Below the pieces are notes generated by a model, which was not told where the DNA came from, ran no database searches, and saw only the letters and a list, made by a program, of their open reading frames with translations. The position numbers and the translations under genes are program-made. From contig CAMDDX010000001.1 of the NCBI GenBank assembly GCA_945893075.1, positions 13,132 through 77,131 on the forward strand: a DNA stretch of 64,000 nt. The letters are read 5' to 3'. Of the stretch, positions 4,703 through 25,462 are shown piece by piece (position 1 is the first letter of the stretch; every line of letters begins with the position of its first letter). This DNA is from Planctomyces sp. SH-PL62. GTDB taxonomy: Bacteria; Planctomycetota; Planctomycetia; Planctomycetales; Planctomycetaceae.

Positions 4703-6262
4703 TCACGGCTTTCTTGGCGAGGTCGGCTTCGCCACCAGAATCAATCCCTGCAATACGAGGAACACCACTAGCGGAGCAATCCAAGCCAGACGCAAGACTC
4801 GCATCAGAGTGTCCCAGCCGGTGCTCACCGCCGCTGCGAGCAACGTGCGATGATCGGCGGCCTCGACGCCCAGATTCGCCAAGCGTTCGACGATCTTGCT
4901 GCGGCGGCGTTGATCGAGTTCCGAATTCGGTGGATCGCTCGAGGGTTCGAGATACACGGACTTCGGTTCGTCCTTCAACCGCTCGGCCATGTGTTCGAGC
5001 CGAGTCTCAGCCTTCGGAGTCAGCGCTGCGGCGTGCAATTCAAAATCGGACTCTTGCAACCACAAGCCGGCGGTTTCCGCATCGCGGACGGCTCGATCAC
5101 GCGACTCCAGCAGCGATCCCAGGCCGAGCAGCGCCAGCATCAGGACCAGCGTCAGCATCAGCATTCCACAGCCGATCGCCGTCATCTGCGTCTTGAACTG
5201 CTGCCGTTCGGACAAGATCTCGAAGTGCAAGTCGATGGTCCGTCGCCGCCGCAACGAACGCTTCGCAGCGTCGAGCACATCAAAGGCACGCACCGCATCC
5301 GACCAGGTCGGAGCGTGCGGTGTCTTGGAGGTCACGAACGCCGCGATCATCGCCACCGGCGCAGCGGCATCGGTGGGACGGTCCAAGGTGATTGGTCCGC
5401 GTTCGGTCTCGACGGTCAATCGCCACACGGGCACCGCGCCGCGTCGGGCGGTCCAGGTCGCGTCGGGCAAGTTGCTGCCCGCCAAAGTCAGCGTCGCTTG
5501 CGAGCAGCCTTGCTCCGTCAGGCCAGAACGTTGCGCGGTGACTTGGTCGTAGCGGCCTCCCAACCATTGCAGCAGGTCGATGTCGTCGAGAGCGGCAGCG
5601 TCGATCTCGGCATCCGTCAGCCCTGATGTAGTGGCGCACGACACACTTTGCGCACGAGCCGGGGTCAGGTGTTCTGATTTCTGTTTTGGCCGCGAGATGG
5701 CCGTCGATTTCATTTTCGAGTCAGTCTTCGAATCGGCGGTTGGCTCCTTTTGTGACGCCAAAACAGAAATCAGAACACCTGACCCCTCCGCTTTCGCTGA
5801 TGTCGCGGATGACGATGGAATTTCACGATCCACTTGGAGCCGCCGAATCGCTCCCAATTCGCCGGTCGCAAGCCGCTGCGAGAGGGAGACCAGTTCCGGC
5901 ACGAAACGCAACAAGAAGGCGGGCATCAGCTCAACGTGCGAATCATCTCGGACAAGCGACAACTCGTAGGCACACGCGGCTCCGAACGCGACGCGCGGCA
6001 CGATCAGCAGCGGCTTGCCTGCCGAGGCCAAGAGCTTGGCGGCCGCTTGCACTTCGTCGCTGTCTCCCGCGATGACGATCGCCTCGACGGCTGGGTCGAT
6101 CAGAAACTCCTCCCACGAGCACCGCGGGACCGACGACCATTCCGCATGCGATGCGAGCAGACGTTCCGCCAAGGCGGCTCGGACGACACGATGCCCCGCT
6201 GCGGGTATGGCTTCGAGCAGCGGAACCGCGGCGGCATCGTCTCCGACAAGTGCGAAATTCAT
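4703..6262 (-). CDS. Gfo/Idh/MocA-like oxidoreductase-fold protein with C-terminal transmembrane segments
   Basis: The N-terminus MNFALVGDD...AIVIAGDSDEVQAAAKLLASAGKPLLIVP resembles the Rossmann half of Gfo/Idh/MocA proteins. Hydrophobic stretches MTAIGCGMLMLTLVLMLALLGLG and WIAPLVVFLVLQGLILV occur near the C-terminus. The ORF contains an in-frame palindromic element. Confidence 0.55.
   Translation of the reverse strand: MNFALVGDDAAAVPLLEAIPAAGHRVVRAALAERLLASHAEWSSVPRCSWEEFLIDPAVEAIVIAGDSDEVQAAAKLLASAGKPLLIVPRVAFGAACAYELSLVRDDSHVELMPAFLLRFVPELVSLSQRLATGELGAIRRLQVDREIPSSSATSAKAEGSGVLISVLASQKEPTADSKTDSKMKSTAISRPKQKSEHLTPARAQSVSCATTSGLTDAEIDAAALDDIDLLQWLGGRYDQVTAQRSGLTEQGCSQATLTLAGSNLPDATWTARRGAVPVWRLTVETERGPITLDRPTDAAAPVAMIAAFVTSKTPHAPTWSDAVRAFDVLDAAKRSLRRRRTIDLHFEILSERQQFKTQMTAIGCGMLMLTLVLMLALLGLGSLLESRDRAVRDAETAGLWLQESDFELHAAALTPKAETRLEHMAERLKDEPKSVYLEPSSDPPNSELDQRRRSKIVERLANLGVEAADHRTLLAAAVSTGWDTLMRVLRLAWIAPLVVFLVLQGLILVAKPTSPRKP
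5661..5786. repeat. Palindromic element, GGGGTC-terminus family (copy 3), inserted in frame inside a CDS
   Basis: A perfect 30-bp inverted repeat (5661-5690 and 5757-5786) spans 126 bp in total, which is 42 codons. The host ORF reads through it as GSGVLISVLA...RPKQKSEHLTP. Confidence 0.85.
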
Positions 6263-6336
6263 GGTGGCGGAGAGTAGCCGGAGCGGGTGAAGGCGTCAGC
6301 CCTCGTGAGGATGCGATGATTTGTGGGCATTTAGCC

Positions 6337-6429
6337 GGAAATGGAAAATGAGAAATGAAGAATGGAAAATGCAAAATGTCTGCAATTTGATTTTGCATTT
6401 TCCATTTCTCATTTCTCATTTTCCATTCC
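6337..6429. repeat. A/T-rich long inverted repeat in a divergent promoter region
   Basis: Arms of about 40 nt (6337-6377 and 6390-6429) are built from GGAAAATG/GAGAAATG units and are complementary except for one indel and mismatch. The repeat lies between the minus-strand start at 6262 and the lepB start at 6490. Confidence 0.8.
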
Positions 6430-6489
6430 CGCCTTGAGTGCCGACTTCCTCTTTGGCCGAACGCAGACCGGCGGCTACAACTCCTGCCG

Positions 6490-14483: not shown

Positions 14484-17400
14484 TCACTTCGCGGAGTCAG
14501 TCGGATTGCTCAGCAAGTACGCGATCACGTCTCGCAACTCTTCCGTCGTCTTCACGACACCTTGTGGCATGGCCGAGACGTCCGCGAGTTTCCGGGCTTC
14601 GATGTCGGACTTGTTGATCGAGACTCGCTTCGTGTCGGGCAGCAGCACTTCCAACTTCTCGCCCGTTTCGCTGACGACGAGACCGGTGATGACTTTTCCA
14701 TCGGTCGTCTGGATCGTGGAAGACTTGAAGACGGGCGAGATCACTTTATTCGGAGCCAGCACCGATTCAACAAGGTACGCCACAGAGAACCGCTTGCCGG
14801 AATCGGCCAAGCTGGGTCCACCGCCACCGGGTTGAGTCGCTGTCGCCGCGTGACACTTCGCGCAGCCCAGCGACTCGGCACCGAATAATTTCTTGCCGCG
14901 TGCGACGTCACCGATCTTCACCGCTTCGGACCAATCGACAGTCAGGAACTTTGGGTCGATCGGCTGCGAGCCACTTCCGGCCGAGATCAATCGTTCCGCC
15001 AGCGACAGACCGTCCGGCTTCTCTGGCAAAGAGAACTTCACGTCGCCGAGATGTTTGAAGTGCAGATACTGCCCGCCACGTCCCGATTGCATCCGCACGC
15101 GGACGAGGATGTCGTTACTGCCCGCCAGCAGATCGAGCGGCACGACATCATCAAGCTGTTGCAACGGTCGGACGGCATCGTTGGTGAAGACCAGCTTGCC
15201 GTTGTGCCAGACGCGAACGCCGTCCTCACTACCAACGAGCAATTGCATGCGCTGAGCGGTCGGCACGTCGAAGCGAACCAGCGAATAGACCGACGAATTC
15301 GGCGACGGACCAAACAGCGTGTTGAAGTTGTAAAGCGGCCGATCCGGACTGGAGGTCTTCGTCAGCTTCCATTCGAACGATTTCCCGGCGACCGCAACTT
15401 TCGCGGCGAGGTCAATCGCCGCGGTCTCGACCGCATGCACGGTCTTGAATCCATCGGCATCCGGCACCGGGCCGAGCATCCACACCTGCGGCCGGACATG
15501 CTCCAGCTTCCCTTGCAGGTTCAGCCGCTTGTCCTGCACGCCGGCCGTGACGGTGGCGATCTTCGGCTCGGAACGCGGATCGTTGAGCAACGATAAGAAA
15601 TGCGCCGCCTGCAACCGCACCTTGTCGTCGTCATCGCTGAGCCGCTCCACGAGCAGCGCGAAGAGTTTCTCTTGTTCGTCAGTGTGCTTGAGCGTCTTCC
15701 AATGTTCGGCCACGGTGTAGTTGCCGACGCGGCCGAACTTGCGCAAGTCGATCGGCTCTTTCTCGTCGGCAAAGAGGATGATGTTCGCTTCCTCTTTCTG
15801 TTGTGGTGCGAGCGGCGCGGCCGCCGGCAACTTGGCATCGACGGCGGGAATCGTCAGCCGAAAACCTGCGATGAGCACGCCCATCATGCGCAATGGTTGT
15901 TCGGGTGCTCGGCTATACGCAGCGGTCAGTTTCGGCAACGGGAGACTCGAAAACACATGACAGGCCCGCACCAGATGGGCGTCGACATCACCTTGTCGCA
16001 GTCTTTCGCGAGTTCCGTCGTCCCAGTCTTGGCGAATCTGCTTCAGCGTGTTTTCTGGATCACGTTCCGCATCCGCCATCAAATCCTCAAGCCTCAACTC
16101 GGCAAACCCCTGTGCCAAGGATTTCGCAAGAGGCTCCACGAGAATTGGTCCAAAGATGGCAACCGTCAGAGCGTCTCCGAAAGCGAGCGGTGGATCAGGT
16201 GGATGCCGGCCAGGATGACGAGTCGTTTTCGGCGACACCTGCCAGCGACGGACCAGCTCGGCAAATGCTGTCGATGACCGATTCCACTCGGCCCGAAAAC
16301 GTTCCTCACGGAGCTTCTCGGCCGCAACACTCGTCAGATCGTATCCGTCGAACGGCATCGTGTCGGGATCGTCCTTGCGCGTGATGACGGCGAGGTCGCT
16401 GCGGTACACGGGCGAACCTTCGTTCTGAGCCATGTAGCAGATCGTGACGAAGACTCGCCCACCGCGACCGACGCAAACGCCAACCGGCCGCGCCTGATCG
16501 CTCCCTTCCAACAGGACATGCTCCTTCGCGGTGAAAGTGCTCCCCTTGGCTTCGAGCGGAAACCGCGTGACTTGTCGGCGACACCAGCGGGCGACGAGCA
16601 GATTGTTCTCGTACTTCTCCGGCAGATAGCCGTCTGCGTAATACGTTTGCAGGACCGGGACGAACCGGCCCAACTCTTCGTTGAGGCTCGGCAGGATGTC
16701 GGCGCGGTCGGGCGATTTGCTCTGCAACCAACCGCGCGGCCAACTGAAGTACGAACCTTCGGTCACATGCAGCAGCCGTCCGGGAACGTAGGCCGATGGC
16801 AGCCCCTCGTGATCGTTGTCGTTGGTGAAGAGGTTCCAATTCTTGTCGAAGCACAGCCCACACGGGTTTCGCAATCCGCGCGAGAAGCTCCGCAGATTGG
16901 TCCCGTCCGGTCGAATGCGAAAGACTCCGCCGACGCCGTTGTACGGCATCGTCGCCCAGTCTTTATCGCCGACACGAATCGTCTTCTCGACGTAGCCCTG
17001 TCGCTCCGCGACAGGAGAACTTTCCTGTCGCGGAGCGACAGGGCTACTTTTGAAGAACATCGTCCAATGCCCCCAGTGATCTGGTCGAGTGAAGTCTCCG
17101 TAATACCACAGCGGATCGCCCATCGAGACATAGAGGTCTCCCTCCGGTCCCCACGCGCAGGCGTGAAAGCACTGATGGACGTGACCGTTCGGCACGCCCC
17201 ACATTAGCCGCTCGATGGTGACACCTTCCCGCTTCAGTCGCGCCCCCGGCAGCCGATAGACCGCGCTGACCGTGACGACGTAAAGGTCGTCGCCTCGAAT
17301 CTCGATGTCGTTGACCCAAGTGTGATCGGGAAACGTGAACAGCAACTGCCGCGGCTTGTACCGCCCGGCCTCGTCGAGGTCGTAGACGAACAGCGTCTTG

Positions 17401-17576
17401 CGGCCTCCGACAAAGATGCGTCCCGCCGTGTCGAGCCGCACCGACAGGAACGAATCGTCGTCGGAAGAATCGAGCCGCACGACTTTCAAATCAGGATCGA
17501 GGACGCGGTAGTCGAGGTCTTCAGCCAGAAGTGGGGCCGTGGACAGCATCAGCAACAAAGCCAAACGCGAAGTCAT
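14484..17576 (-). CDS. Large secreted heme-binding protein (PVC-type CxxCH / membrane-bound-dehydrogenase-like)
   Basis: The signal-like N-terminus is MTSRLALLLMLSTAPLLA. A C-terminal cytochrome c motif CAKCHA is followed by a conserved tail (ITGLVVSETGEKLEVLLPD...MPQG). The architecture is recognised from planctomycete/verrucomicrobial proteins. Confidence 0.75.
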   Translation of the reverse strand: MTSRLALLLMLSTAPLLAEDLDYRVLDPDLKVVRLDSSDDDSFLSVRLDTAGRIFVGGRKTLFVYDLDEAGRYKPRQLLFTFPDHTWVNDIEIRGDDLYVVTVSAVYRLPGARLKREGVTIERLMWGVPNGHVHQCFHACAWGPEGDLYVSMGDPLWYYGDFTRPDHWGHWTMFFKSSPVAPRQESSPVAERQGYVEKTIRVGDKDWATMPYNGVGGVFRIRPDGTNLRSFSRGLRNPCGLCFDKNWNLFTNDNDHEGLPSAYVPGRLLHVTEGSYFSWPRGWLQSKSPDRADILPSLNEELGRFVPVLQTYYADGYLPEKYENNLLVARWCRRQVTRFPLEAKGSTFTAKEHVLLEGSDQARPVGVCVGRGGRVFVTICYMAQNEGSPVYRSDLAVITRKDDPDTMPFDGYDLTSVAAEKLREERFRAEWNRSSTAFAELVRRWQVSPKTTRHPGRHPPDPPLAFGDALTVAIFGPILVEPLAKSLAQGFAELRLEDLMADAERDPENTLKQIRQDWDDGTRERLRQGDVDAHLVRACHVFSSLPLPKLTAAYSRAPEQPLRMMGVLIAGFRLTIPAVDAKLPAAAPLAPQQKEEANIILFADEKEPIDLRKFGRVGNYTVAEHWKTLKHTDEQEKLFALLVERLSDDDDKVRLQAAHFLSLLNDPRSEPKIATVTAGVQDKRLNLQGKLEHVRPQVWMLGPVPDADGFKTVHAVETAAIDLAAKVAVAGKSFEWKLTKTSSPDRPLYNFNTLFGPSPNSSVYSLVRFDVPTAQRMQLLVGSEDGVRVWHNGKLVFTNDAVRPLQQLDDVVPLDLLAGSNDILVRVRMQSGRGGQYLHFKHLGDVKFSLPEKPDGLSLAERLISAGSGSQPIDPKFLTVDWSEAVKIGDVARGKKLFGAESLGCAKCHAATATQPGGGGPSLADSGKRFSVAYLVESVLAPNKVISPVFKSSTIQTTDGKVITGLVVSETGEKLEVLLPDTKRVSINKSDIEARKLADVSAMPQGVVKTTEELRDVIAYLLSNPTDSAK

Positions 17577-17610
17577 GCGAATATCTCCACAGCGCCAATC
17601 AGGCTCGCCA

Positions 17611-17648
17611 ATGAAAATGGCTCTCTCGCAGTCATTGACGAGAGAGCC
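17611..17648 (-). terminator. Rho-independent-like terminator downstream of the tRNA remnant
   Basis: A 10-bp stem (GGCTCTCTCG / CGAGAGAGCC, 17619-17628 and 17639-17648) is followed on the minus strand by ATTTTCATT. Confidence 0.5.
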
Positions 17649-17658
17649 ATATCTGAAT

Positions 17659-17676
17659 GCGGAGAGAGGGTGATTC
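17659..17676. repeat. 18-nt direct repeat (tRNA-Ser 3' end), copy 1, att-like
   Basis: GCGGAGAGAGGGTGATTC matches 24670-24687 at 17 of 18 positions in the same orientation. Confidence 0.6.
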
Positions 17677-17730
17677 GAACCCCCGGTACCCTCACGGGCA
17701 CGCCGGTTTTCAAGACCGGTGGCTCGCCAA
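17660..17730 (-). pseudogene. tRNA-Ser(UGA) remnant lacking the 5' acceptor strand and most of the D arm
   Basis: The minus strand reads CCGGT-CTTGAAA-ACCGG (anticodon UGA), then a long variable arm TGCCC-GTGA-GGGTA, a T arm GGGGG-TTCGAAT-CACCC (one mismatch) and the acceptor 3' strand TCTCTCC-G. No complementary GGAGAGA 5' strand occurs upstream, and the D arm is collapsed (TTGGCGAGCCA). Confidence 0.65.
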
Positions 17731-17869
17731 TGGTACTGACGTTAGTGGCTTGATGCTGCGCGAACAAGCGGGGGACTCTGGTACCATCCCTGGCCCAAAT
17801 TGTGGCGAGTTGGTGACAACGAATGAGAACGCGGAGCGTGTCGTCGCGAGTTCGGAACGTGGTCAGGAA

Positions 17870-17968
17870 CACGCTGCCGAGTTGGCTCGGATCATCGCGG
17901 TGTGTTCCGAACTGCCGGCGGTGTTGAAGGGGGCGATGCTGGCGATTGTGGACTCGGCCGGCGCGGCG
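17870..17968. repeat. 99-bp repeat module A (encodes [25 protein letters not shown]), copy 1
   Basis: Nearly identical to 21323-21421 (three substitutions seen). A shortened version lies at about 22027-22089. Confidence 0.8.
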
Positions 17969-18107
17969 CGGAGCCGTCCAGGCAAGCCGTAGTGCGGACG
18001 GGCGGGAGTTGCTGTGGGTATCAGGCTGGCCTAGACTCCAATTGAACTTTCCGTGCGTCGAACGGTTGCGGGAACGGCATTGAAACCCTCAAAAATGATG
18101 CTCTGTC

Positions 18108-18935
18108 ATGGCTGACACGCTGAGCACACCGCTACCTGAATACGAATTGCCGCCCGTCATCGAGACGTTGCTCGGCGTACAATTTCAGCGATTGGAAGCA
18201 TGGGGAACGCCGCATTTCGGATTGTTTTGGCAACGAATTCGTGACGAGTACCCCGAATTCGAGATCCAGCCACCTCTCCAAATTCAGGAAGAACTTTTTG
18301 GAGCTGAGGATGTCCGCCCAAAGTCGCTGTCATTTCGACTCCAACAAGAGCCGCCTCTTCGCTGTTGGTTTTTGAATCAAACTGGTGAAAGGCTGCTGCA
18401 AATTCAGAACGGGCACTTCCTCCACAACTGGCGACGGATTCGCGAACAAGACGCCTACCCGCGATATGATCTGACGATTCGCCCGCGATTCGAGACGGAA
18501 TGGCGTCGCTTCTGTGAGTTTCTCGCCAGCGAAAAGATCCCTGAGCCGAAGATTACTCAGTGCGAAGTGATCTATGTGAACCACATTGTCCGTGGAATCG
18601 GCTGGGGGAGTCCCAAGGATTTGCCACAAGTCTTCCCATGCTGGTCGGGTGAGGTTTCTGGGTGTTTCTTACCAACGCCTGAGTCAGTCGTTCTCAATGC
18701 CAACTACGTTTTGCCAAACCAGCAAGGGCGATTACACATCGAGGCGGAGCCAGCAATTCGGGAAGTCGATGCTCAGGAGGTTCTGCAACTGAAACTGACT
18801 GTGCGAGGACGTCCGGCTTCGAGTAGCCTGTCCGACGTCTTGAATTGGTTCGATCTTGGTCGTGAGTGGATTGTTCGCGGGTTTACGGATTTCACATCCG
18901 CTCGAATGCACGAGCTTTGGAAGCGAAAGAGCTAA
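18108..18935 (+). CDS. Hypothetical protein, resembles the TIGR04255 uncharacterised family (recollection only)
   Basis: A 275-aa ORF with ATG start. The pattern VIETLLGVQF..., LLQIQNGHFLHNWRR..YPRY, CEVIYVNHI and a C-terminal WFDLGREWIVRGFTDFTS matches my memory of TIGR04255-type proteins. It is the first gene of a tightly packed three-gene operon. Confidence 0.6.
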   Translation: MADTLSTPLPEYELPPVIETLLGVQFQRLEAWGTPHFGLFWQRIRDEYPEFEIQPPLQIQEELFGAEDVRPKSLSFRLQQEPPLRCWFLNQTGERLLQIQNGHFLHNWRRIREQDAYPRYDLTIRPRFETEWRRFCEFLASEKIPEPKITQCEVIYVNHIVRGIGWGSPKDLPQVFPCWSGEVSGCFLPTPESVVLNANYVLPNQQGRLHIEAEPAIREVDAQEVLQLKLTVRGRPASSSLSDVLNWFDLGREWIVRGFTDFTSARMHELWKRKS

Positions 18936-18937
18936 CC

Positions 18938-19414
18938 ATGCCGCAAGGTCTGTACGAACCACGTCAGCGCGAGCGTCTGTCCGGTGGACAGCGTGGCGGA
19001 TTTGCCGTCAAGCCGGCAACGTCGGCGTTGTGGACCACTGTCAGTTCCCTGAGCGACGCAAGGGAATGGCAGCGGGATGCCTGGAAACAACTCAATGAGG
19101 TTCGTGCATTGCCCGCTGATTGGGATGGTTACGGAAGTCCGGTGATGAGCGAACGCTCTTTCCAACAGGCGTGCAAGCTAATCTTTGCTGTTGAGGTCGA
19201 GTATCTGCCGACTCCGCATCTTGGCCCAGAGTCCGGCGGCGCAGTGCAATTCGATTGGTGCAACGGCCGTCACGCTTTGGAACTGCATTTCCTCGCCGAC
19301 GGCACTGTCTCGTATCTGAAAACCGTCAACGGTGACTGCGAGGCAGACGGAGAACTCCCAGCCAATGCCATCAACGAATGGCGCTCACTGGTCGAGTGGC
19401 TGCAAGAAGGCTGA
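18938..19414 (+). CDS. Hypothetical protein (158 aa)
   Basis: ATG lies 2 nt after the stop of the upstream gene. The protein contains LPADWDGYGSPV. No family was assigned. The track ORF start (18866) overlaps the upstream gene. Confidence 0.6.
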   Translation: MPQGLYEPRQRERLSGGQRGGFAVKPATSALWTTVSSLSDAREWQRDAWKQLNEVRALPADWDGYGSPVMSERSFQQACKLIFAVEVEYLPTPHLGPESGGAVQFDWCNGRHALELHFLADGTVSYLKTVNGDCEADGELPANAINEWRSLVEWLQEG

Positions 19415-19438
19415 TCGGGTTCACGGAGACGAACCGCT

Positions 19439-19867
19439 ATGCCAACGGAACGTGCCGATGACCCAGCCATTCGCAACGAGGATGAGCTTTGGCGTTCCGT
19501 GCATCCCAGCCAATTGTTTTTAGACCCTCAGACAAAGCGGATACGACCAAAATCCGGCGCGTTCATTGACCGGAACACCGGTGAAATGTCGGTTGATGTG
19601 GCCCGCCTGACATCGTTGGATGCCATCCGCCATCGAAGACCACAGCACAGCTTTGCGAAATTCACGGCCGGCGACGTTCGGACGATGGAGTCTGGATACC
19701 GCGTTTGCTCTGATCCGATCCTTCCCAACAACCTGGAACACGAGCCACCGAATCCGGCGCACGCTGTTGTGTGTCCACGAATGAAAAGCTCAGACGCTCA
19801 AAAGCTCGCTACCAGTGAAAACGTCTGGGCCTTCTTGAATTCTCCCGACAGTGCCGCGGCAAGCTAA
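19439..19867 (+). CDS. Hypothetical protein (142 aa)
   Basis: ATG lies 24 nt after the previous stop. This is the third gene of the operon. The protein reads ELWRSVHPSQL...SGAFIDRNTGEMSVDVARL...NPAHAVVCP. No family was assigned. Confidence 0.6.
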   Translation: MPTERADDPAIRNEDELWRSVHPSQLFLDPQTKRIRPKSGAFIDRNTGEMSVDVARLTSLDAIRHRRPQHSFAKFTAGDVRTMESGYRVCSDPILPNNLEHEPPNPAHAVVCPRMKSSDAQKLATSENVWAFLNSPDSAAAS

Positions 19868-19930
19868 CGGACAAGGCCGAGCGAGGAACGCCACACCCAC
19901 CAATCTGACGCGGAAGTCCTGAGAACCGCA

Positions 19931-20061
19931 CGGCGAGTGGACGGTGAGGTGAGATGGCTGATCGAACGGTGAGACGGACGGTGCCACGGATCGGCTGGCC
20001 GGGAGTGTAAGCAGCGACGTTGTGGCTGACATGGACACAACCTCGAAGGTCGCGGGGATCG
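19931..20061. repeat. 131-bp repeat module S, copy 1
   Basis: CGGCGAGTGG.CGGTGAGGTG.GATGGC.GATCGAACGGTGAGACGGACGGTGCCACGGATCGGCT...GTCGCGGGGATCG recurs with the same length at 21417-21547, with scattered substitutions. Its first 20 nt recur at 22085-22104. Confidence 0.85.
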
Positions 20062-20155
20062 GATGGGTTTCGTCAATGAGCGGCGGGGTTGTGTCGGCAA
20101 GACTGGTGGGCACCGCGTCTTCCGAAGTCCGTCCATCGACGCCAGCATCTCGACA

Positions 20156-20788
20156 TCAGCGCGCCGGTTCCAAGCCGTCAAACAGTGCGGGAAGTTCCCC
20201 ACGTCGTCGGCGTTCAAAGAAACTGGCGGACAAACCGGATGGAATTGCGTTTCCATCAGGTGGATGCAGCTTCGCGAGATTCGGAAGGTCCGAAGGATGG
20301 CCAAACAGGCGGTGCTTCAACTCGCGAGCCTCTGCTGAAGACTCGGCATTCAAGAGCGTCCAAAGCCGAAACATCGTCTGCCGCGCCGACACCAGCGCGG
20401 GCCGATTCAACAGGCAGAGATCAATCAAGGCTTGCCCCTCGGCGGACTTCGCGATGACCGCACCGTCAGGGCTGACAGAGACATGCTCTGCCACTCGGTC
20501 TCGACACGGATTGAGTGGCGAATCGTGATCCTGTTTGGCCGAGTTACAACCGCAACAGGCATAGACCAAATTGGCGTAGTCGCGAGCCAAATCCGGCTGC
20601 CGGGACTGCGACTGAAGATGCTCCACGCTGAAGGCGGCATCACCGGCGGAGCTCCACGTTTCACGCCACAGACAGTAAACACAGCGAAAGGCAAACTCAT
20701 CGCGAAGCCAAGGCTTGAACGAGCGATAATCGTTGTAGCCTCGCGGCCCATGACGGCGTTGGTGAGCGTGCTGCGGATAGTCGAACAT
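20156..20788 (-). CDS. HNH-family nuclease (210 aa)
   Basis: FRCVYCLWRE...FSVEHLQSQS...NLVYACCGCNSAKQD is an HNH beta-beta-alpha-metal core with two Cys pairs. The start lies 9 nt downstream of the RHH gene stop. Confidence 0.75.
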   Translation of the reverse strand: MFDYPQHAHQRRHGPRGYNDYRSFKPWLRDEFAFRCVYCLWRETWSSAGDAAFSVEHLQSQSRQPDLARDYANLVYACCGCNSAKQDHDSPLNPCRDRVAEHVSVSPDGAVIAKSAEGQALIDLCLLNRPALVSARQTMFRLWTLLNAESSAEARELKHRLFGHPSDLPNLAKLHPPDGNAIPSGLSASFFERRRRGELPALFDGLEPAR

Positions 20789-20797
20789 GCCGCGCTC

Positions 20798-21148
20798 TCA
20801 AGTGGCTGTGACCGTGCCAGTGTGTGGGACAACGCGATCGACTGCCTCTCGCATGGCGGCCACATCGCTCAGCAATTGCGAGTCCCAAGCTTCCAGCCGT
20901 TCTGTCGCCAAGTCTTGCAGGTGTTCCAACTCGCGCGTTTCCGCCGCATCCAACCCCTGAGTGAACCGCTGATGAATCAACGCGACTCGCCGAGCATTCT
21001 TGGCCGACCAATCATCACTGGAATCGTCGGCATCAATCGCCGCATCCAGAATGGTCACGACCAATGATTCCACCGTGGTTCGTTGTGACTGAGCTTTCTT
21101 CTCCAACCGAGCGGCCAGTCTTTCCGGCACTGCGATCGTTTGCGACAT
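20798..21148 (-). CDS. Ribbon-helix-helix (CopG/Arc-like) protein, putative partner or antitoxin of the HNH nuclease
   Basis: MSQTIAVPERLAARLEKKAQSQRTTVESLVVTILDAAI has an RHH N-terminal pattern and is followed by a helical tail. The start is set at the internal Met (the track ORF runs to 21166). Confidence 0.65.
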   Translation of the reverse strand: MSQTIAVPERLAARLEKKAQSQRTTVESLVVTILDAAIDADDSSDDWSAKNARRVALIHQRFTQGLDAAETRELEHLQDLATERLEAWDSQLLSDVAAMREAVDRVVPHTGTVTAT

Positions 21149-21219
21149 GACAAGTCTCTCCCACAAACACTCGGTGGCTCTGAACGAGAATCAATCTATC
21201 GGACTCACCCGCAGTCAGA

Positions 21220-21237
21220 CAAGACGCTTGCGTCTTG
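21220..21237. promoter_or_regulatory. Candidate operator palindrome upstream of the RHH-HNH operon
   Basis: CAAGACGC-TT-GCGTCTTG has perfect 8-bp arms and lies 72 nt upstream of the RHH start codon. It is duplicated at 21999-22016, upstream of the second RHH copy. Confidence 0.35.
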
Positions 21238-21322
21238 CTCGGTGTCCCGTCCTCGATTCCATCCACTTCCGCGTCTTGCCGGGAGAGTTTGCGTTCGACG
21301 ACTGCGCGGGAAGGAATTTGGC

Positions 21323-21421
21323 CACGCTGCCGAGTTGGCTCGGATCGTCGCGGCGTGGTCCGAACTGCCGGCGGTGTTGAAGGGGGCGATGCTGGCGATT
21401 GTGGACTCGGCCGGCGCGGCG
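21323..21421. repeat. 99-bp repeat module A, copy 2
   Basis: See 17870-17968. It directly abuts repeat module S copy 2. Confidence 0.8.
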
Positions 21422-21547
21422 AGTGGGCGGTGAGGTGGGATGGCGGATCGAACGGTGAGACGGACGGTGCCACGGATCGGCTAGCCGCGAGTGTGAGCAG
21501 CGACGTGGTGGCTGACATTGATACAACCTCGAAAGTCGCGGGGATCG
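21417..21547. repeat. 131-bp repeat module S, copy 2
   Basis: See 19931-20061. Confidence 0.85.
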
Positions 21548-21576
21548 TGCTGCGGATAGTCGAACATGCCGCGCTC

Positions 21577-21927
21577 TCAAGTGGCCGTCGCCGTACCGGT
21601 GTGTGGGACAACGCGCTCGACCGCCTCTCGCATCGCCGCAACATCGCTCAGCAATTGCGAGTCCCAGGCTTCCAGCCGTTCTGTCGCCAAGTCTTGCAAG
21701 TGTTCCAACTCGCGCGTTTCCGCCGCATCCAACCCCTGAGCGAACCGCTGATGAATCAACGCGACTCGCCGAGCATTCTTGGCGGACCAATCATTACTGG
21801 AATCGTCGGCATCAATCGCCGCATCCAGAATGGTCACGACCAATGATTCCACCGTGGTTCGTTGTGACTGAGCTTGCTTCTCCAGTCGAGCGACCAATCT
21901 TTCCGGCACTGCGATCGTTTGCGACAT
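21577..21927 (-). CDS. Ribbon-helix-helix protein, duplicate copy (orphan: its HNH partner is reduced to 7 codons)
   Basis: The 116-aa translation is almost identical to that of 20798-21148. Downstream, only MFDYPQH of the HNH gene remains before the junction with module S. Confidence 0.5.
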   Translation of the reverse strand: MSQTIAVPERLVARLEKQAQSQRTTVESLVVTILDAAIDADDSSNDWSAKNARRVALIHQRFAQGLDAAETRELEHLQDLATERLEAWDSQLLSDVAAMREAVERVVPHTGTATAT

Positions 21928-21998
21928 GACAAGTCTCTCCCACAAACACTCGGTGGCTCTGAACGAGAATCAATCTATCGGACACGCCCGCAGTCAGA

Positions 21999-22016
21999 CA
22001 AGACGCTTGCGTCTTG
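21999..22016. promoter_or_regulatory. Candidate operator palindrome, duplicate copy
   Basis: Same 8-2-8 palindrome as at 21220-21237. Confidence 0.3.
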
Positions 22017-22026
22017 CTCGGTGTCG

Positions 22027-22089
22027 GCTGAATTGCAAGCGGTGTTGCAGGGGGCGATGCTTGCGATTGTGGACGCCACCGGTGCGGCG
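22027..22089. repeat. Repeat module A, shortened copy 3
   Basis: It encodes [21 protein letters not shown] and aligns to the ends of the 99-bp module with the middle missing. The first 20 nt of module S follow it. Confidence 0.6.
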
Positions 22090-22244
22090 AGTGGGCGGTG
22101 AGGTTGACTTGGCCGACGGACAGTTGTGCCATGAAGCGAGTCTTGGCCGGAGATTTTTCGATCGACTGCCGAGCGGCGAACCAACCGATCCGATTGTCTT
22201 CATCGCAGCACGGGCTGAGCGTCGTTTTTTGTGGGGCTTTCAGA

Positions 22245-23333
22245 ATGGCGAATTCCGAACACGTTGAAGTCGTTCGCAAGGGAACGGAAGCGATTCGATT
22301 GTGGCATGAGCGCAATCCCAACGAGTCGTTGAACCTTATCGAGGCAGACCTAAGCGGCGCAAATTTAAGCGGCGCGAACCTCAGGAGGGCAAATCTCTAC
22401 GGGGCGAACCTCATCAGGACGGATCTAAGCCGGTCGGACCTAATTCTTTCGGCCCTAATCGAGGCGAACCTCGGCGGGGCGAGCCTCATCGAAGCGAACC
22501 TAAACGGGGCGCAACTCATTGAAGCGAACCTCATCGGAACAAACCTCGACGGGACGAACCTCAGCGGGGCGAATCTCAACACTGTGTGCTGTGAGCATAC
22601 GGCGTTCACAGACGTTGATCTTTCACGTGTCGTGGGGCTTGAAACAGCGAGGCACAACGGACCGTCTTCAGTGGGCATCGACACCCTCTCCAAATCAAAA
22701 GGCCAGATCCCCGAAGTATTCCTGCGTGGTTGCGGCTTACGCGATTGGGAAATCGTTGCCTCCCGCTTGTACGCTGAGGGACTGACTCCCGATCGGATTA
22801 CGACCATCGGTTATGAACTCATCAACCTGAGAAACGATCAGCCGATTCAGTTCTTCTCGGCGTTTATCTCGTATGGTCACGCAGATAAGCCGTTCGCTCG
22901 GCGGTTGCACGATGCGCTTCAGAAACGCGGCATTCGCTGTTGGCTGGACGCGCACCAATTGCTTCCGGGTGATGACATTCACGAGCAGGTTGATCGTGGC
23001 ATTCGACTATGGGACAAGGTGCTGCTGTGTGGGTCTCGGCATTCGCTCACCAGTTGGTGGGTCGATAATGAAATTGAGACGGCCTTCGCCAAAGAACGTG
23101 AGTTGATGGAAGAGCGTGGCCGGAAGGTGCTGTCGTTGATCCCGTTGAATCTGGACAGCTTTCTGTTCGGGTGGGTCAACGGCAAGGCTCAACAAGTGAA
23201 ATCACGCCTCGCCGCCGACTTCACGGGCTGGGAGACGGACAACGCTACGTTTGAGCGGGAACTTGAGAAGTTGGTCAAAGCTCTGCGAGCCGACGATGGC
23301 GGACGGCCACCCGCACCGGAACCGAAGTTGTGA
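22245..23333 (+). CDS. Pentapeptide-repeat / TIR-domain fusion protein
   Basis: The N-terminal half has consecutive A(D/N)LxG-type pentapeptides ([33 protein letters not shown]...[18 protein letters not shown]). The C-terminal half has TIR motifs [39 protein letters not shown] and [15 protein letters not shown] (candidate catalytic Glu). The start is set at ATG 22245 (the track ORF starts at 22098, inside the repeat modules). Confidence 0.8.
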
Positions 23334-23482
23334 AGGCCCCACGCCCATGCCGCCGTCCGGACCTTCACGGCCATCGTGCGAGCAGTTTTGGAGTTCGCTC
23401 GTTCTCGTTCCGATGCTATGTTGATGGCCGTGTCGAGTCATTGTGACGGTGCGAGTGCTTGCTTCCGCTCAGGAGTTGTCTG

Positions 23483-23944
23483 ATGAATTCTGTCACCATT
23501 CGATTGTCGAAGCCTGCGTTCGATCGCTTGCAGCAAGCGGCTCGCCGGTCGCGGCGGAGCGTGGATGAGTACGCTTCGGAGATGTGTGCGACGATGGCCA
23601 CGGTTGGTCCCGGTGAATTCTTCGTACCGTTGGGAGACTGTCGTGGGTTGCGAATGAAACGCTGGAAGGACAGCCTCGCTGACATCGACGCGGCTCTGAA
23701 AGTGATGGAGTTTCTCAGCGAGGCTGACTTGAAGCGGGCCTTCAAGACCGTGCCCACCAAACAGAGTCAGCAGGAGATGGCCGACCTCAACGACAAGGCA
23801 CAAAGCGTCGGTCTGACGAAGGCCGAGAAACAGCGATCCGAAGAACTTCGCGAATACTTCGACCAGTGCCAACTCATTCGCGCGAACGCGGCGGCGGTCT
23901 TGAAGCAACGTGGCTTTGACGTCAATAAGTTGCTGCGACCATGA
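23483..23944 (+). CDS. Ribbon-helix-helix-like protein, putative partner of the downstream HNH nuclease
   Basis: MNSVTIRLSKPAFDRLQQAARRSRRSVDEYASEM has an RHH-like N-terminus and is followed by a helical tail. Its stop overlaps the HNH start (ATGA at 23941-23944). Confidence 0.55.
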   Translation: MNSVTIRLSKPAFDRLQQAARRSRRSVDEYASEMCATMATVGPGEFFVPLGDCRGLRMKRWKDSLADIDAALKVMEFLSEADLKRAFKTVPTKQSQQEMADLNDKAQSVGLTKAEKQRSEELREYFDQCQLIRANAAAVLKQRGFDVNKLLRP

Positions 23945-24369
23945 GTGCGGCTTCCGTCTCGAAAAAGCTGCGGCAGAAAGTCGCTCGGCGTGCCAAGCAG
24001 CGCTGTGGGTATTGTTTGGTGGCGTCTTCGATCACCGGCGTCGAATTGCAGATCGAACATTTGTGGCCCACGTCCAAAGGTGGTCTGACCGTCGAGGACA
24101 ATCTTTGGCTGGCTTGCGCGGAATGCAACCAACGAAAATCTGATCGAACGCGAGTCGTTGATCCGCTGACAAAGAAAGAAGTGCCGTTATTTAATCCTCG
24201 CCAAGATGGTTGGCAGGATCATTTTCGTTGGTCGGACGACGGAACCGAAATCGTCGGATTGACGGCCGTTGCTCGCGCGACGATCGTCGCATTGCAACTC
24301 AACCGGCCAGCTCGAATCGCCGCAAGGCGGCGATGGGTGAGCGTCGGCTGGCATCCACCGAAAGACTGA
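23941..24369 (+). CDS. HNH endonuclease (142 aa)
   Basis: CGYCL...LQIEHLWPTSKGGLTVEDNLWLACAECNQRKSD is a canonical HNH core with two Cys pairs. Confidence 0.8.
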   Translation: MSAASVSKKLRQKVARRAKQRCGYCLVASSITGVELQIEHLWPTSKGGLTVEDNLWLACAECNQRKSDRTRVVDPLTKKEVPLFNPRQDGWQDHFRWSDDGTEIVGLTAVARATIVALQLNRPARIAARRRWVSVGWHPPKD

Positions 24370-24608
24370 CTCTCTGCGCTGCAATTCTTCGCCAAGGTCA
24401 TGAAAACCGTGCCGAATGCGGCGGACGTCGATCGTTGAGCGAACAACGAGCCTCAATCCGAGGGAACAGTGTTGCGAGCTACGGCCACCGACGACTTCTC
24501 TGGCCCAACTGTGTCACCAAGCCTAGCTCAAAATTGGCTCAAACCGGTGCCAGTGATAGACGATCCCTGAGAACGCTTGAGGCGACGGACGCGGAATCGT
24601 CTGCCAAC

Positions 24609-24632
24609 GAAAAACCCCCGAATCACCGGGGG
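24609..24632 (-). terminator. Terminator-like hairpin downstream (minus strand) of the second tRNA 3'-end copy
   Basis: The stem CCCCCG / CGGGGG has a 6-nt loop and is followed on the minus strand by TTTTTC. Confidence 0.4.
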
Positions 24633-24669
24633 ATTAGCAGCATCGACAACGCATGAGCAAACCTGAGAA

Positions 24670-24687
24670 GCGGAGAGAGGGGGATTC
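24670..24687. repeat. 18-nt direct repeat (tRNA-Ser 3' end), copy 2, att-like
   Basis: GCGGAGAGAGGGGGATTC reads on the minus strand as GAATCCCCC-TCTCTCC-GC (T-stem 3' strand, acceptor 3' strand, discriminator). No remainder of a tRNA is found upstream of it. Confidence 0.6.
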
Positions 24688-24946
24688 TCTGACCGGCGGC
24701 GCTTCTGGAACTCCGAATCATGGCAACTTACGCGATGATAGCACCTTGAGCGTTTGAGGCAATTCCGGTCAATCATGAGTGCCCGAGAGGTCCGATGATC
24801 GCAACGCCACAAAATTGCCACAAATGAAATCATGGAATGCGGCGAGTCGTGGTGAGGTTGGCTTGGAAACCAGCGAAACACTCAGATGTTCGTCTGACGA
24901 ATGTTTTTCAAACCGCACGCATGAATAATGAGAGCCAAGTCTTCGC

Positions 24947-25462
24947 GTGGCTCGCGCTGTGTTTCAGCAGCTCAACAGCTTCGACTTCGCGGACGTAGCG
25001 GCTGAAGTTGGGACTGAGGAACGAGGCGACGACATCCACGATGAGTTCAAGGAAACCGGCGACCAGTTCGGCCTTGGAAGCATCGGAAACTTTCCAGCGA
25101 CTGACAATGACTCGACATACATCCTCGACCGTTTCCGGCACCTCGCCGAGGTCATTCAAATCACCGGCAAAAGTTTTCGACTCCACCACGCCGACAACGC
25201 CGCCGCCGAACCGCTGCTGCTGGCCGGCGAGCAAGATCTCGCCAAGCTCGAATCGACCATTCCGGCCGAGGACCGCGTCCGGTTCCGGAAGGAGTCCGTG
25301 CAACGCTTGATCGACCTCTTTCGGGCGACGAAACGCGATCGCGAAATCGCACGCTGGGAGGAACGCCTCCGCGCGAGCAAATCGCCAGATACCTCGGCGG
25401 AATCGAAAGTCAAAGGTTGTTGCGGCAACCCGGGATGGATAGGCTCACACTTTCATTTTTGA
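24947..25462 (+). CDS. Hypothetical protein immediately upstream of the giant gene (uncertain)
   Basis: A 171-codon ORF with a GTG start and no internal Met. It ends 38 nt before the giant ORF start. A 131-codon ORF on the opposite strand shares the same triplet partition, so the strand assignment is not secure. Confidence 0.4.
   Translation: MARAVFQQLNSFDFADVAAEVGTEERGDDIHDEFKETGDQFGLGSIGNFPATDNDSTYILDRFRHLAEVIQITGKSFRLHHADNAAAEPLLLAGEQDLAKLESTIPAEDRVRFRKESVQRLIDLFRATKRDREIARWEERLRASKSPDTSAESKVKGCCGNPGWIGSHFHF

Follow-up and report, generated by a model that had tools for sequence, protein, structure and literature searches.

Introduction

Two kinds of described system come closest to the locus studied here. 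The first is the tRNA-integrated island, for which Islander is the source of the definition: its mark is a regenerated target gene together with a displaced fragment of that gene (PMC4383910). The sublocation classes referred to below are those of Williams (2002), as cited in the same paper. The second kind comprises cis-mobilizable elements (CIMEs) and their tandem accretion, for example among the ICESt1-related elements of Streptococcus thermophilus (PMC5704250). We analyzed 64,000 nucleotides (nt) from Planctomyces sp. SH-PL62 (hereafter the window; contig CAMDDX010000001.1, positions 13,132 to 77,131 of the forward strand), in which a reading made from the letters alone (the sequence-only reading) had proposed an accessory island of about 7 kb between two remnants of one tRNA-Ser(UGA) gene. 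These 6,948 bp (17722-24669), which we call E1, are very probably a decayed integrative element inserted in the tRNA-Ser(UGA) gene between coaX and a cytochrome c gene, where the tRNA was later cut a second time by another element, E2. The host is a freshwater planctomycete, and the case is an ordinary but very cleanly documented stacking of mobile elements.

Positions are those of the window, and the contigs used for comparison carry L numbers. Feature coordinates are collected in Table 1.

Results

Two remnants of tRNA-Ser(UGA) in the window

No tRNA gene was called by ARAGORN anywhere in the window, including at 17.7 kb, where no cloverleaf is present, as the sequence-only reading had expected. 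Rfam likewise gave no tRNA match, only chance microRNA (miRNA)-like matches to hairpins. The left remnant, read on the minus strand from 17721 to 17659, is CACCGGTCTTGAAAACCGGCGTGCCCGTGAGGGTACCGGGGGTTCGAATCACCCTCTCTCCGC, the last 63 nt of tRNA-Ser(UGA). Divided into its parts it reads CACCGGTCTTGAAAACCGG-CGTGCCCGTGAGGGTAC-CGGGGGTTCGAATCACCC-TCTCTCCGC, retaining the anticodon arm (UGA), a long variable arm, the T arm and the acceptor strand at the 3' end. Compared with nt 26-88 of the complete gene in contigs L047, L049 and L052, on the same strand, 61 of 63 positions agree, and one mismatch breaks the T stem. The sequence-only reading had named these parts correctly but had drawn the remnant too long (17660-17730): tRNA identity stops at 17721, and the bases beyond bear only a loose resemblance to a D arm.

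The right remnant, read from 24687 to 24670, is GAATCCCCCTCTCTCCGC. It holds the last 18 nt of the tRNA, that is, the end of the T-loop and the 3' strands of the T stem and acceptor. The direct repeat proposed here was reproduced, 17 of its 18 bases being identical to 17659-17676. Shuffled sequence gave no comparable match, and a related 23-nt pattern has an expected count of 0.00.

A terminator scan found a terminator-like hairpin 3' of each remnant, again as proposed. The left one, T1, lies immediately upstream of a cytochrome c/DUF7133 gene (14484-17576, minus strand) and is conserved jointly with the tRNA tail in L007 and L046, from another species. The right one, T2, stands directly downstream of the intact tRNA in L047, L048, L049 and L060. 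The approximately 35 nt just after the tRNA are common to E1 and to a different island in L052, but not to the island-free contig L053.

Sibling contigs carry the intact tRNA

A small open reading frame (ORF) beside the left tRNA fragment (17657-17992) was found on nine public contigs. Five of these (L047-L051), together with L058 and L060-L062, which were reached through neighboring genes, are metagenome assemblies from at least five other samples and are 99.96-99.97% identical to the window. The species is present in the ENA and Logan samples ERZ27280310, ERZ27280328, ERZ27280297, ERZ27265268, ERZ27265269 and ERR3719144. In L047, L048, L049 and L058, the identity ends exactly at base 24687, past which the contigs run on into an intact tRNA-Ser(UGA) of 88 nt, called by ARAGORN and folding into a cloverleaf. 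An intact target tRNA was found at the homologous position in these four contigs and in L060 and L062. The tail seen in the window corresponds to the last 18 nt of the siblings' tRNA, after which both have T2 and the 7 kb in common. The complete order in the siblings is coaX, intact tRNA-Ser, T2, 6,948 bp, 63-nt 3' fragment (61/63), T1 and cytochrome c gene.

A regenerated tRNA at one end and a displaced 3' fragment at the other mark E1, as judged from these alleles, as what appears to be a classic tRNA-integrated island in the sibling strains. The siblings thus bear out the proposal of a tRNA-targeted integrative element: they have the intact tRNA where the window has only the 18-nt tail, then the hairpin, the 7 kb and the 63-nt fragment. 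The sequence-only reading had also allowed for several nested events. Several events are indeed visible, although they are more exactly tandem, a second element family having interrupted the tRNA once more, at the T-loop.

Native context of the target gene

Conservation of the 5' side (coaX-tRNA, with about 35 nt upstream of the gene) extends to two other species. In one of them (L053-L055; coaX 87% identical), the tRNA is followed directly by mfd without any island; in the other (L052; coaX 83% identical), a different island follows coaX-tRNA. On the opposite side, L007 and L046 (a different species, cytochrome c protein 87% identical) have the tRNA tail abutting T1 and the cytochrome c gene without E1. 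A metagenome scan with the tRNA-T1 junction as pattern returned only L046 and L045, the latter being the same contig as L007. In another 40-odd relatives, no similarity to the window was found to the right of 17676.

The island of L052 (11099-19240, about 8 kb) shares its first 35 nt or so with E1. Its cargo includes a DUF3987 fragment, a PIN toxin pair and a HemolysinCabind protein of 977 aa, and its far end yielded no 3' tRNA fragment.

E1 carries cargo but no integrase

The GC content of E1 is 57.6%, against 60.3% in the left and 61.3% in the right flank, and E1 is the lowest 7-kb stretch in the window. The shift toward A/T that had been noted is therefore real but modest. GC at third codon positions (GC3) is 0.56-0.70 in island genes and 0.70-0.80 in flank genes, and segments of E1 differ from one another, from 55.8% to 62.3% GC.

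Gene calls were taken from sibling contigs and mapped onto the window (that of the pentapeptide-TIR gene came from L047). The content is of the accessory type that had been described: unknowns, HNH nucleases, a TIR protein and internal repeats. The pentapeptide-TIR protein gave weak matches to defense-type TIR proteins in PADLOC and NCBIfam. The two HNH proteins share 32% identity (E=2e-7), while their small partner proteins show no detectable relationship to each other. No relaxase or similar gene was found in E1. The absence of an integrase between the repeats also held: no scanned ORF, including every island ORF, matched PF00589, and tblastn with four integrases from related loci detected no integrase or remnant in the window.

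The region at the left end belongs to a wider family. The small ORF (P0001 family) overlaps the conserved arm next to the fragment; its 5' part is merely the antisense of the tRNA fragment, which leaves its coding status uncertain. Thirty-one short homologues were found, all in Planctomycetaceae. The arm is 90% identical to L052 (18569-18712) and 88% identical to L078 (9992-10214). L078, a contig of the same metagenome-assembled genome (MAG) as L007, is homologous to window positions 17744-17966 and 19928-20057 (88-94%), and there the arm abuts a tRNA-Ser(GCU) 3' fragment that spans the anticodon stem to the 3' end, as the fragment of E1 does. The GCU fragment is flanked on its other side by genes for an HTH_17 protein and a 425-aa integrase (PF00589), both transcribed toward it.

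An attP of the E1 family would be expected to show this order: excisionase and integrase, core, arm. Such an order predicts the arm at attR after integration, as seen at 17.7-18.0 kb, and the integrase and excisionase genes at the tRNA-proximal end, directed toward the tRNA. In the window, that place is taken by the 153-aa/HNH gene pair, which is likewise transcribed toward the tRNA. We infer that E1 lost its recombination module, in keeping with the integrase loss proposed earlier. Decay from an integrase-bearing element is suggested by the E1 arm standing beside a tRNA-Ser fragment, HTH_17 gene and integrase in L078; no intermediate form was found. In L078 (8147-10340), the attP-like order is uninterrupted, yet lies inside a chromosome contig without an intact tRNA nearby, with the tRNA fragment on the opposite strand.

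A probable second element joined to the tRNA tail

Upstream of the T-loop, the tRNA in the window is replaced by ...CGCCGCCGGTCAGA|GAATCCCCCTCTCTCCGC. Flank and tail together make up AGAGA-ATCCCCC-TCTCT, an imperfect inverted repeat with a spacer of 7 nt; two TTGTGGC motifs lie about 115 nt from this core. In L046, from a different species, the same 14-nt block (13/14) stands on the tail, there joined to T1; the TTGTGGC pair is at the same distance, and further blocks are conserved at equal spacing. TTGTGGC pairs were found in four loci.

An intact tRNA, an arm and a 461-aa integrase (PF00589) follow one another in L061, a contig with the same coaX protein as the window species. The L061 arm contains two TTGTGGC sites, a third TTGTGG site and two inverted copies of TCAGAGA(A)TTCCC. 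The same arrangement was found in another MAG (L066), with TTGTGGC pairs between the tRNA and an integrase 91.5% identical to that of L061. From these shared motifs, the window junction and the integrase end of L061/L066 appear to be the two ends of one element family, E2, and the window would thus hold the attR of E2, stacked on E1. A matching coaX-tRNA-arm-integrase end exists in the same species, although the two E2 ends are not on one contig.

Beyond 24687, the window continues not as ordinary chromosome but as an att arm and then a giant ORF, a correction to the sequence-only reading. The junction is reproduced in an independent Logan assembly (L059), 100% identical over 10,883 nt, and is therefore not a chimera. 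No E2 attR was found within the 11 kb searched in L066, scans of viral contigs with the E2 integrase and the E2 core pattern were negative, and the window showed no further similarity to the interiors of L061, L063, L066, L068 and L078. Within the putative E2 arm, a sigma-70-like promoter match (24735-24762, minus strand; TTGCCT, 16-nt spacer, TATCAT, TG upstream) points toward the tRNA tail and E1.

Internal repeats and mosaic structure of E1

Self-BLAST showed that the internal repeats of E1 form a unit, R3-R2-R1, with repeat identities of 95% (486 nt), 92% (134 nt), 97% (99 nt) and 85% (86 nt). Copy A is split twice, by an HNH gene between R2 and R1 and by 1.96 kb between R3 and R2. No such gap separates R3 from R2 in L052, in L078 or in copy B of the window itself; because of the contiguity in L052 and L078, the 1.96-kb stretch can be recognized as an insertion. 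The pentamer CGGCG is present on both sides of it. Where the R1 copies differ, the changes are distributed 12:6:2 over codon positions 3, 1 and 2 of the minus frame, a bias that supports the reality of the 116-aa gene.

Compared with L052 (17270-18576), the R1-HNH-R2-R3 block shows 92-96% identity, whereas the adjacent coaX gene reaches only 80.7%. Thus, the block moved recently between species. This suggests, on sequence comparison, that the module of small protein and HNH gene (19928-21246) spreads on its own, possibly by homing.

Table 1. Features of the E1/E2 locus and its right flank (window coordinates; ribbon-helix-helix is abbreviated RHH).
Feature	Position	Strand	Evidence or remark
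T1, intrinsic terminator native to the tRNA-Ser locus	17617-17650	-	13-pair stem, then TTTCATT
attR of E1, displaced tRNA-Ser(UGA) 3' fragment, nt 26-88	17659-17721	-	61/63 to intact tRNA
Conserved att-proximal arm of the E1 family, including R3 (17870-17968)	17744-17968	+	
Three-gene insert of 1.96 kb between R3 and R2	17969-19930	+	GC 55.8%
Insert gene, TIGR04255 family	18108-18935	+	NCBIfam E=4e-16
Insert gene, C-terminal similarity to candidate PDC-M32A	18938-19414	+	PADLOC
Insert gene, no assignment	19439-19867	+	
Unit A: R2 19928-20061, HNH gene 20156-20788, RHH-like gene 20798-21148, R1 20761-21246	19928-21246	-	
PtuB-like HNH nuclease gene	20156-20788	-	Pfam HNH E=4e-7; PADLOC PtuB E=2e-16
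116-aa gene, weakly RHH-like	20798-21148	-	
Unit B (R3'-R2'-R1'), compact, without HNH gene; RHH-like gene 21577-21927	21323-22025	-	
Second copy of the 116-aa RHH-like gene	21577-21927	-	
Unit C, partial copy	21991-22104	-	
Pentapeptide-repeat and TIR protein, 362 aa	22245-23333	+	Pfam Pentapeptide E=6e-26, TIR_2 E=6e-23
153-aa protein gene, no assignment	23483-23944	+	overlaps next HNH gene by 4 nt
PtuB-like HNH nuclease, 142 aa	23941-24369	+	Pfam HNH E=3e-9; PADLOC PtuB E=8e-14
T2, terminator that E1 appears to provide for the regenerated tRNA	24615-24632	-	7 pairs, then TTTTT
E1 attL remnant, also putative core of E2 attR; last 18 nt of tRNA-Ser(UGA)	24670-24687	-	
Putative E2 P arm: core-adjacent block CGCCGCCGGTCAGA 24688-24701; TTGTGGC sites 24806-24812 and 24817-24823	24688-24830	-	
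171-aa ORF between E2 arm and giant ORF	24947-25462	+	called on two Logan contigs only
Giant ORF, at least 12,833 codons, runs off the window	25501-64000	+	stop-free 25480-63999

Other users of tRNA-Ser

A second tRNA-Ser(UGA) gene exists in the same species (L067, 7761-7848, and L069-L076). It lies between a BMC-domain gene and a PSCyt1 gene and is identical over 107 nt, including the 18-19 nt upstream. A functional tRNA-Ser(UGA) is therefore available elsewhere, as the sequence-only reading had required.

This second locus is also occupied in one case: L068 has there a 452-aa integrase, 43% identical to that of E2, and a 660-aa resolvase. In L007, a different element sits on the same tRNA tail as in the E1 locus, with a 550-aa ORF that matches the L068 (BLASTP E=6e-13) and L066 (E=3e-10) integrases by pairwise similarity only, no Pfam or PDB match identifying it as an integrase. 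The same tRNA-Ser serves at least three other integrase families as a target, and two different sublocations are used. Within one species, L007 (3357-5009) and L046 (10429-12011) are 99.9% identical over 10.3 kb and diverge at the tRNA tail, where L007 has the integrase-like ORF and L046 an E2-type arm and a divergent Ser/Thr kinase gene.

Two contigs join flanks in other ways. In L063 (7326-7768), coaX is accompanied by a tRNA whose variable arm shows compensatory changes, and the 3' flank is again a different one. L049 (7349-7600) links the tRNA and E1 to the BMC-side 5' flank of the second locus; it represents either a recombinant or a chimera assembled over the 107-nt repeat. Taken together, the two contigs reflect either recombination between the two tRNA loci plus another element, or a chimera in the case of L049.

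The right flank and other observations

The giant ORF was missing from the program-made ORF list, and the region from 25 to 64 kb thus first resembled some 40 unknown genes on the minus strand. Interpretation as about 40 minus-strand genes or a novel prophage was rejected, the six-frame stop-free scan showing a single plus-strand ORF of 12,840 codons. The minus-strand ORFs gave no Pfam or PHROG matches and are therefore shadow ORFs, ORF 62917-63909 among them; scans of viral contigs with two of these shadow ORFs were negative. GC by codon position in the giant ORF is 0.60/0.46/0.78 (GC3 about 0.78-0.79). Its first 4,500 residues contain pentapeptide repeats (Pfam PF00805 E=3e-108), and only 6 relatives of its first 800 residues were found among 5.8 billion proteins. 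Neither a tRNA nor an integrase lies close to a homologue in L077. The preceding 171-aa ORF gave only a sub-threshold match to the C-terminus of IstB.

As the right-hand neighbor of E1, the giant ORF would be either part of the E2 cargo or brought next to it by a later rearrangement. On the first of these readings, E2 would be a very large tRNA-Ser-integrating element (more than 43 kb) with the giant pentapeptide-repeat ORF, 814 nt from the att core, as its main cargo. The ORF does follow the P arm directly with no other junction between them, its relatives are few, and the 171-aa ORF occurs on only 2 contigs whereas coaX and the E1 genes occur on 8-10. However, its codon GC looks native, the homologue in L077 stands in a non-mobile context and the two E2 ends are unlinked, so that we regard this assignment as tentative and rather doubtful. 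If true, it would mean that a giant surface-protein gene is strain-variable and horizontally mobile in planctomycetes.

Far to the left of E1, two long near-perfect hairpins were observed (5649-5798 and 6326-6442), with z-scores of -10 and -14 against shuffles. The second is intergenic and AT-rich (38% GC). Rfam gives chance miRNA-precursor matches to them, and a weakly similar sequence occurs in L046 (1851-1994).

Discussion

Proposed history of the locus

The following history would account for these observations. E1 would have entered by a tyrosine-recombinase crossover in the segment from the anticodon stem to the 3' end of a tRNA-Ser(UGA) gene, which probably lay between coaX and the cytochrome c gene. 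Integration would have rebuilt the tRNA from element sequence, which also brought the new terminator T2, while the original 3' 63 nt and the native T1 were presumably displaced to the far end. E1 may then have lost integrase and excisionase, expected at the tRNA-proximal end where the 153-aa/HNH pair now sits. What is left would be the att repeats and cargo (TIGR04255 gene, pentapeptide-TIR gene and two modules of small protein and PtuB-like HNH, one of them duplicated). E1 is fixed in the sampled population. Later, in the strain of the window, an E2 of the 461-aa integrase family would have entered the regenerated tRNA, with AGAGA-ATCCCCC-TCTCT at the T-loop/3' end as its core. After its entry, only the 18-nt tail would remain beside E1, the intact tRNA now lying outside the window at the distal end of E2. 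The repeats, the allele with intact tRNA, the precise breakpoint, the motifs of the arm, an integrase end within the species and the lack of E1 at matching junctions elsewhere are direct observations. We infer the order of events, the loss of the integrase and the inability of E1 to move alone.

Several observations weigh against this account. No empty-site allele (coaX-tRNA-T1-cytochrome c) was found among the contigs of the species: all five contigs with the exact cytochrome c protein carry E1, and the exact coaX protein occurs on 10 contigs, of which 6 contexts are shown without an empty site. Synteny around the cytochrome c gene is poorly conserved in 44 related species; none of them has a tRNA upstream of it, and synteny breaks at 17588-17676. 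The empty-site comparison suggested by the sequence-only reading thus yielded no empty allele within the species, while other species do lack the 7 kb at the equivalent junctions. The insertion is therefore deduced from two half-sites in other species, together with the repeats, composition and cargo. As for E2, its far end was never seen on the same contig as the window junction, and the similarity of its arm is short (about 150 nt) and in blocks. Finally, E1 is a mosaic with an insert and duplicated units, and to speak of one element may overstate its unity.

This last point can be developed into a different view of the locus, in which E1 was never one element. The region downstream of tRNA-Ser would be a long-lived, hypervariable hot spot for defense genes and mobile genetic elements; only the att repeats and the arm would go back to an old integrative element, and most of what now makes up the 7 kb would have been added later through separate insertions and the spreading HNH module. 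Such a history would explain why a 1.96-kb insert separates R3 from R2 here but is missing from L052 and L078, why units A, B and C are internal duplications without att cores, why the HNH module is shared at 92-96% with L052 when the rest of the two islands is different, and why GC varies among segments. Yet every contig of the species carries all 7 kb without variation (99.96-99.97%), precisely bounded by two att copies. We consider a pure hot spot rather unlikely; moreover, it refines the model of a decayed integrative element rather than excluding it.

The 18-nt tail invites two further explanations. It might stem from an ordinary deletion or rearrangement instead of a second site-specific integration, given that no integrase lies within 39 kb to the right and that the giant ORF forming the flank has a codon GC like that of native genes (GC3 0.79) and a homologue in L077 in a non-mobile context. 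A chance break would, however, have to fall in the T-loop exactly where the sequence of the new flank makes up an inverted repeat with a 7-nt spacer. Nor does it account for the equal spacing of the 14-nt block and the TTGTGGC pair in L046, from another species, or for the matching integrase end in the window's own species. Deletion is thus an improbable origin of the tail. Alternatively, the junction could have been created during assembly across repeated tRNA sequence, since two identical tRNA-Ser(UGA) genes share 107 nt and L049 joins the flanks of both loci. But the window junction shares only 18 nt with the tRNA, and another sequencing run gave the identical assembly over 10,883 nt, which makes an artifact extremely improbable.

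Significance

With population-level alleles, the decayed-element model illustrates how one tRNA gene gathers stacked mobile elements in a poorly studied phylum, and it makes an att architecture explicit in a phylum with few characterized mobile elements. An integrase-less, defense-type island is fixed in the species. The att cores and arm motifs are concrete for planctomycete integrases and could serve as genetic tools. There is also a practical lesson: the "unannotatable" 39 kb beside E1 are a single giant ORF and not a prophage, hidden because the ORF runs off the window.

Comparison with known systems

The cargo of E1 resembles known defense systems in part. Both HNH proteins match the PADLOC profiles of PtuB, the effector of Septu and retron systems. 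In contrast to Septu, E1 has no PtuA ATPase gene, the HNH scores are far below the NCBIfam cut-off (24.5 versus 150 bits), and each HNH gene is preceded by a small protein gene, one of them RHH-like. Similarly, the TIR domain weakly matches ThsB of Thoeris, with no ThsA-like gene in E1.

At E2, the short core with imperfect inverted repeats around a 7-nt spacer and the TTGTGGC heptamers on both arms at fixed distances (predicted sites) are reminiscent of a lambda-type attP. Unlike in lambda, no excisionase or host-factor sites were identified for E2.

E1 shares with Islander-type islands the intact regenerated tRNA gene at one end in sibling strains and the 3' fragment in direct orientation at the other. 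Its fragment starts at the anticodon stem and falls in the anticodon-centered class, while those of E2 and of the L007 element start in the T-stem region. It differs in that E1 has no integrase, so that the Islander filter would reject it, and in that the regenerated tRNA was cut again in the window itself.

As in a CIME, both attL and attR of E1 are kept (in the sibling contigs) and the genes for recombination and transfer are absent; the stack of E1 and E2 matches the accretion pattern described for the streptococcal elements. The differences from ICESt1-related elements lie in the planctomycete host, where no conjugation genes were seen, and in the cores, which differ within the same tRNA (63 nt, anticodon-centered, versus 18 nt in the T-stem region). 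With such different cores, the E2 integrase is unlikely to recognize the attR of E1. Altogether, by its architecture E1 is best described as an integrase-less, CIME-like tRNA island in tandem with an integrase-bearing element, for which mobilization in cis is putative.

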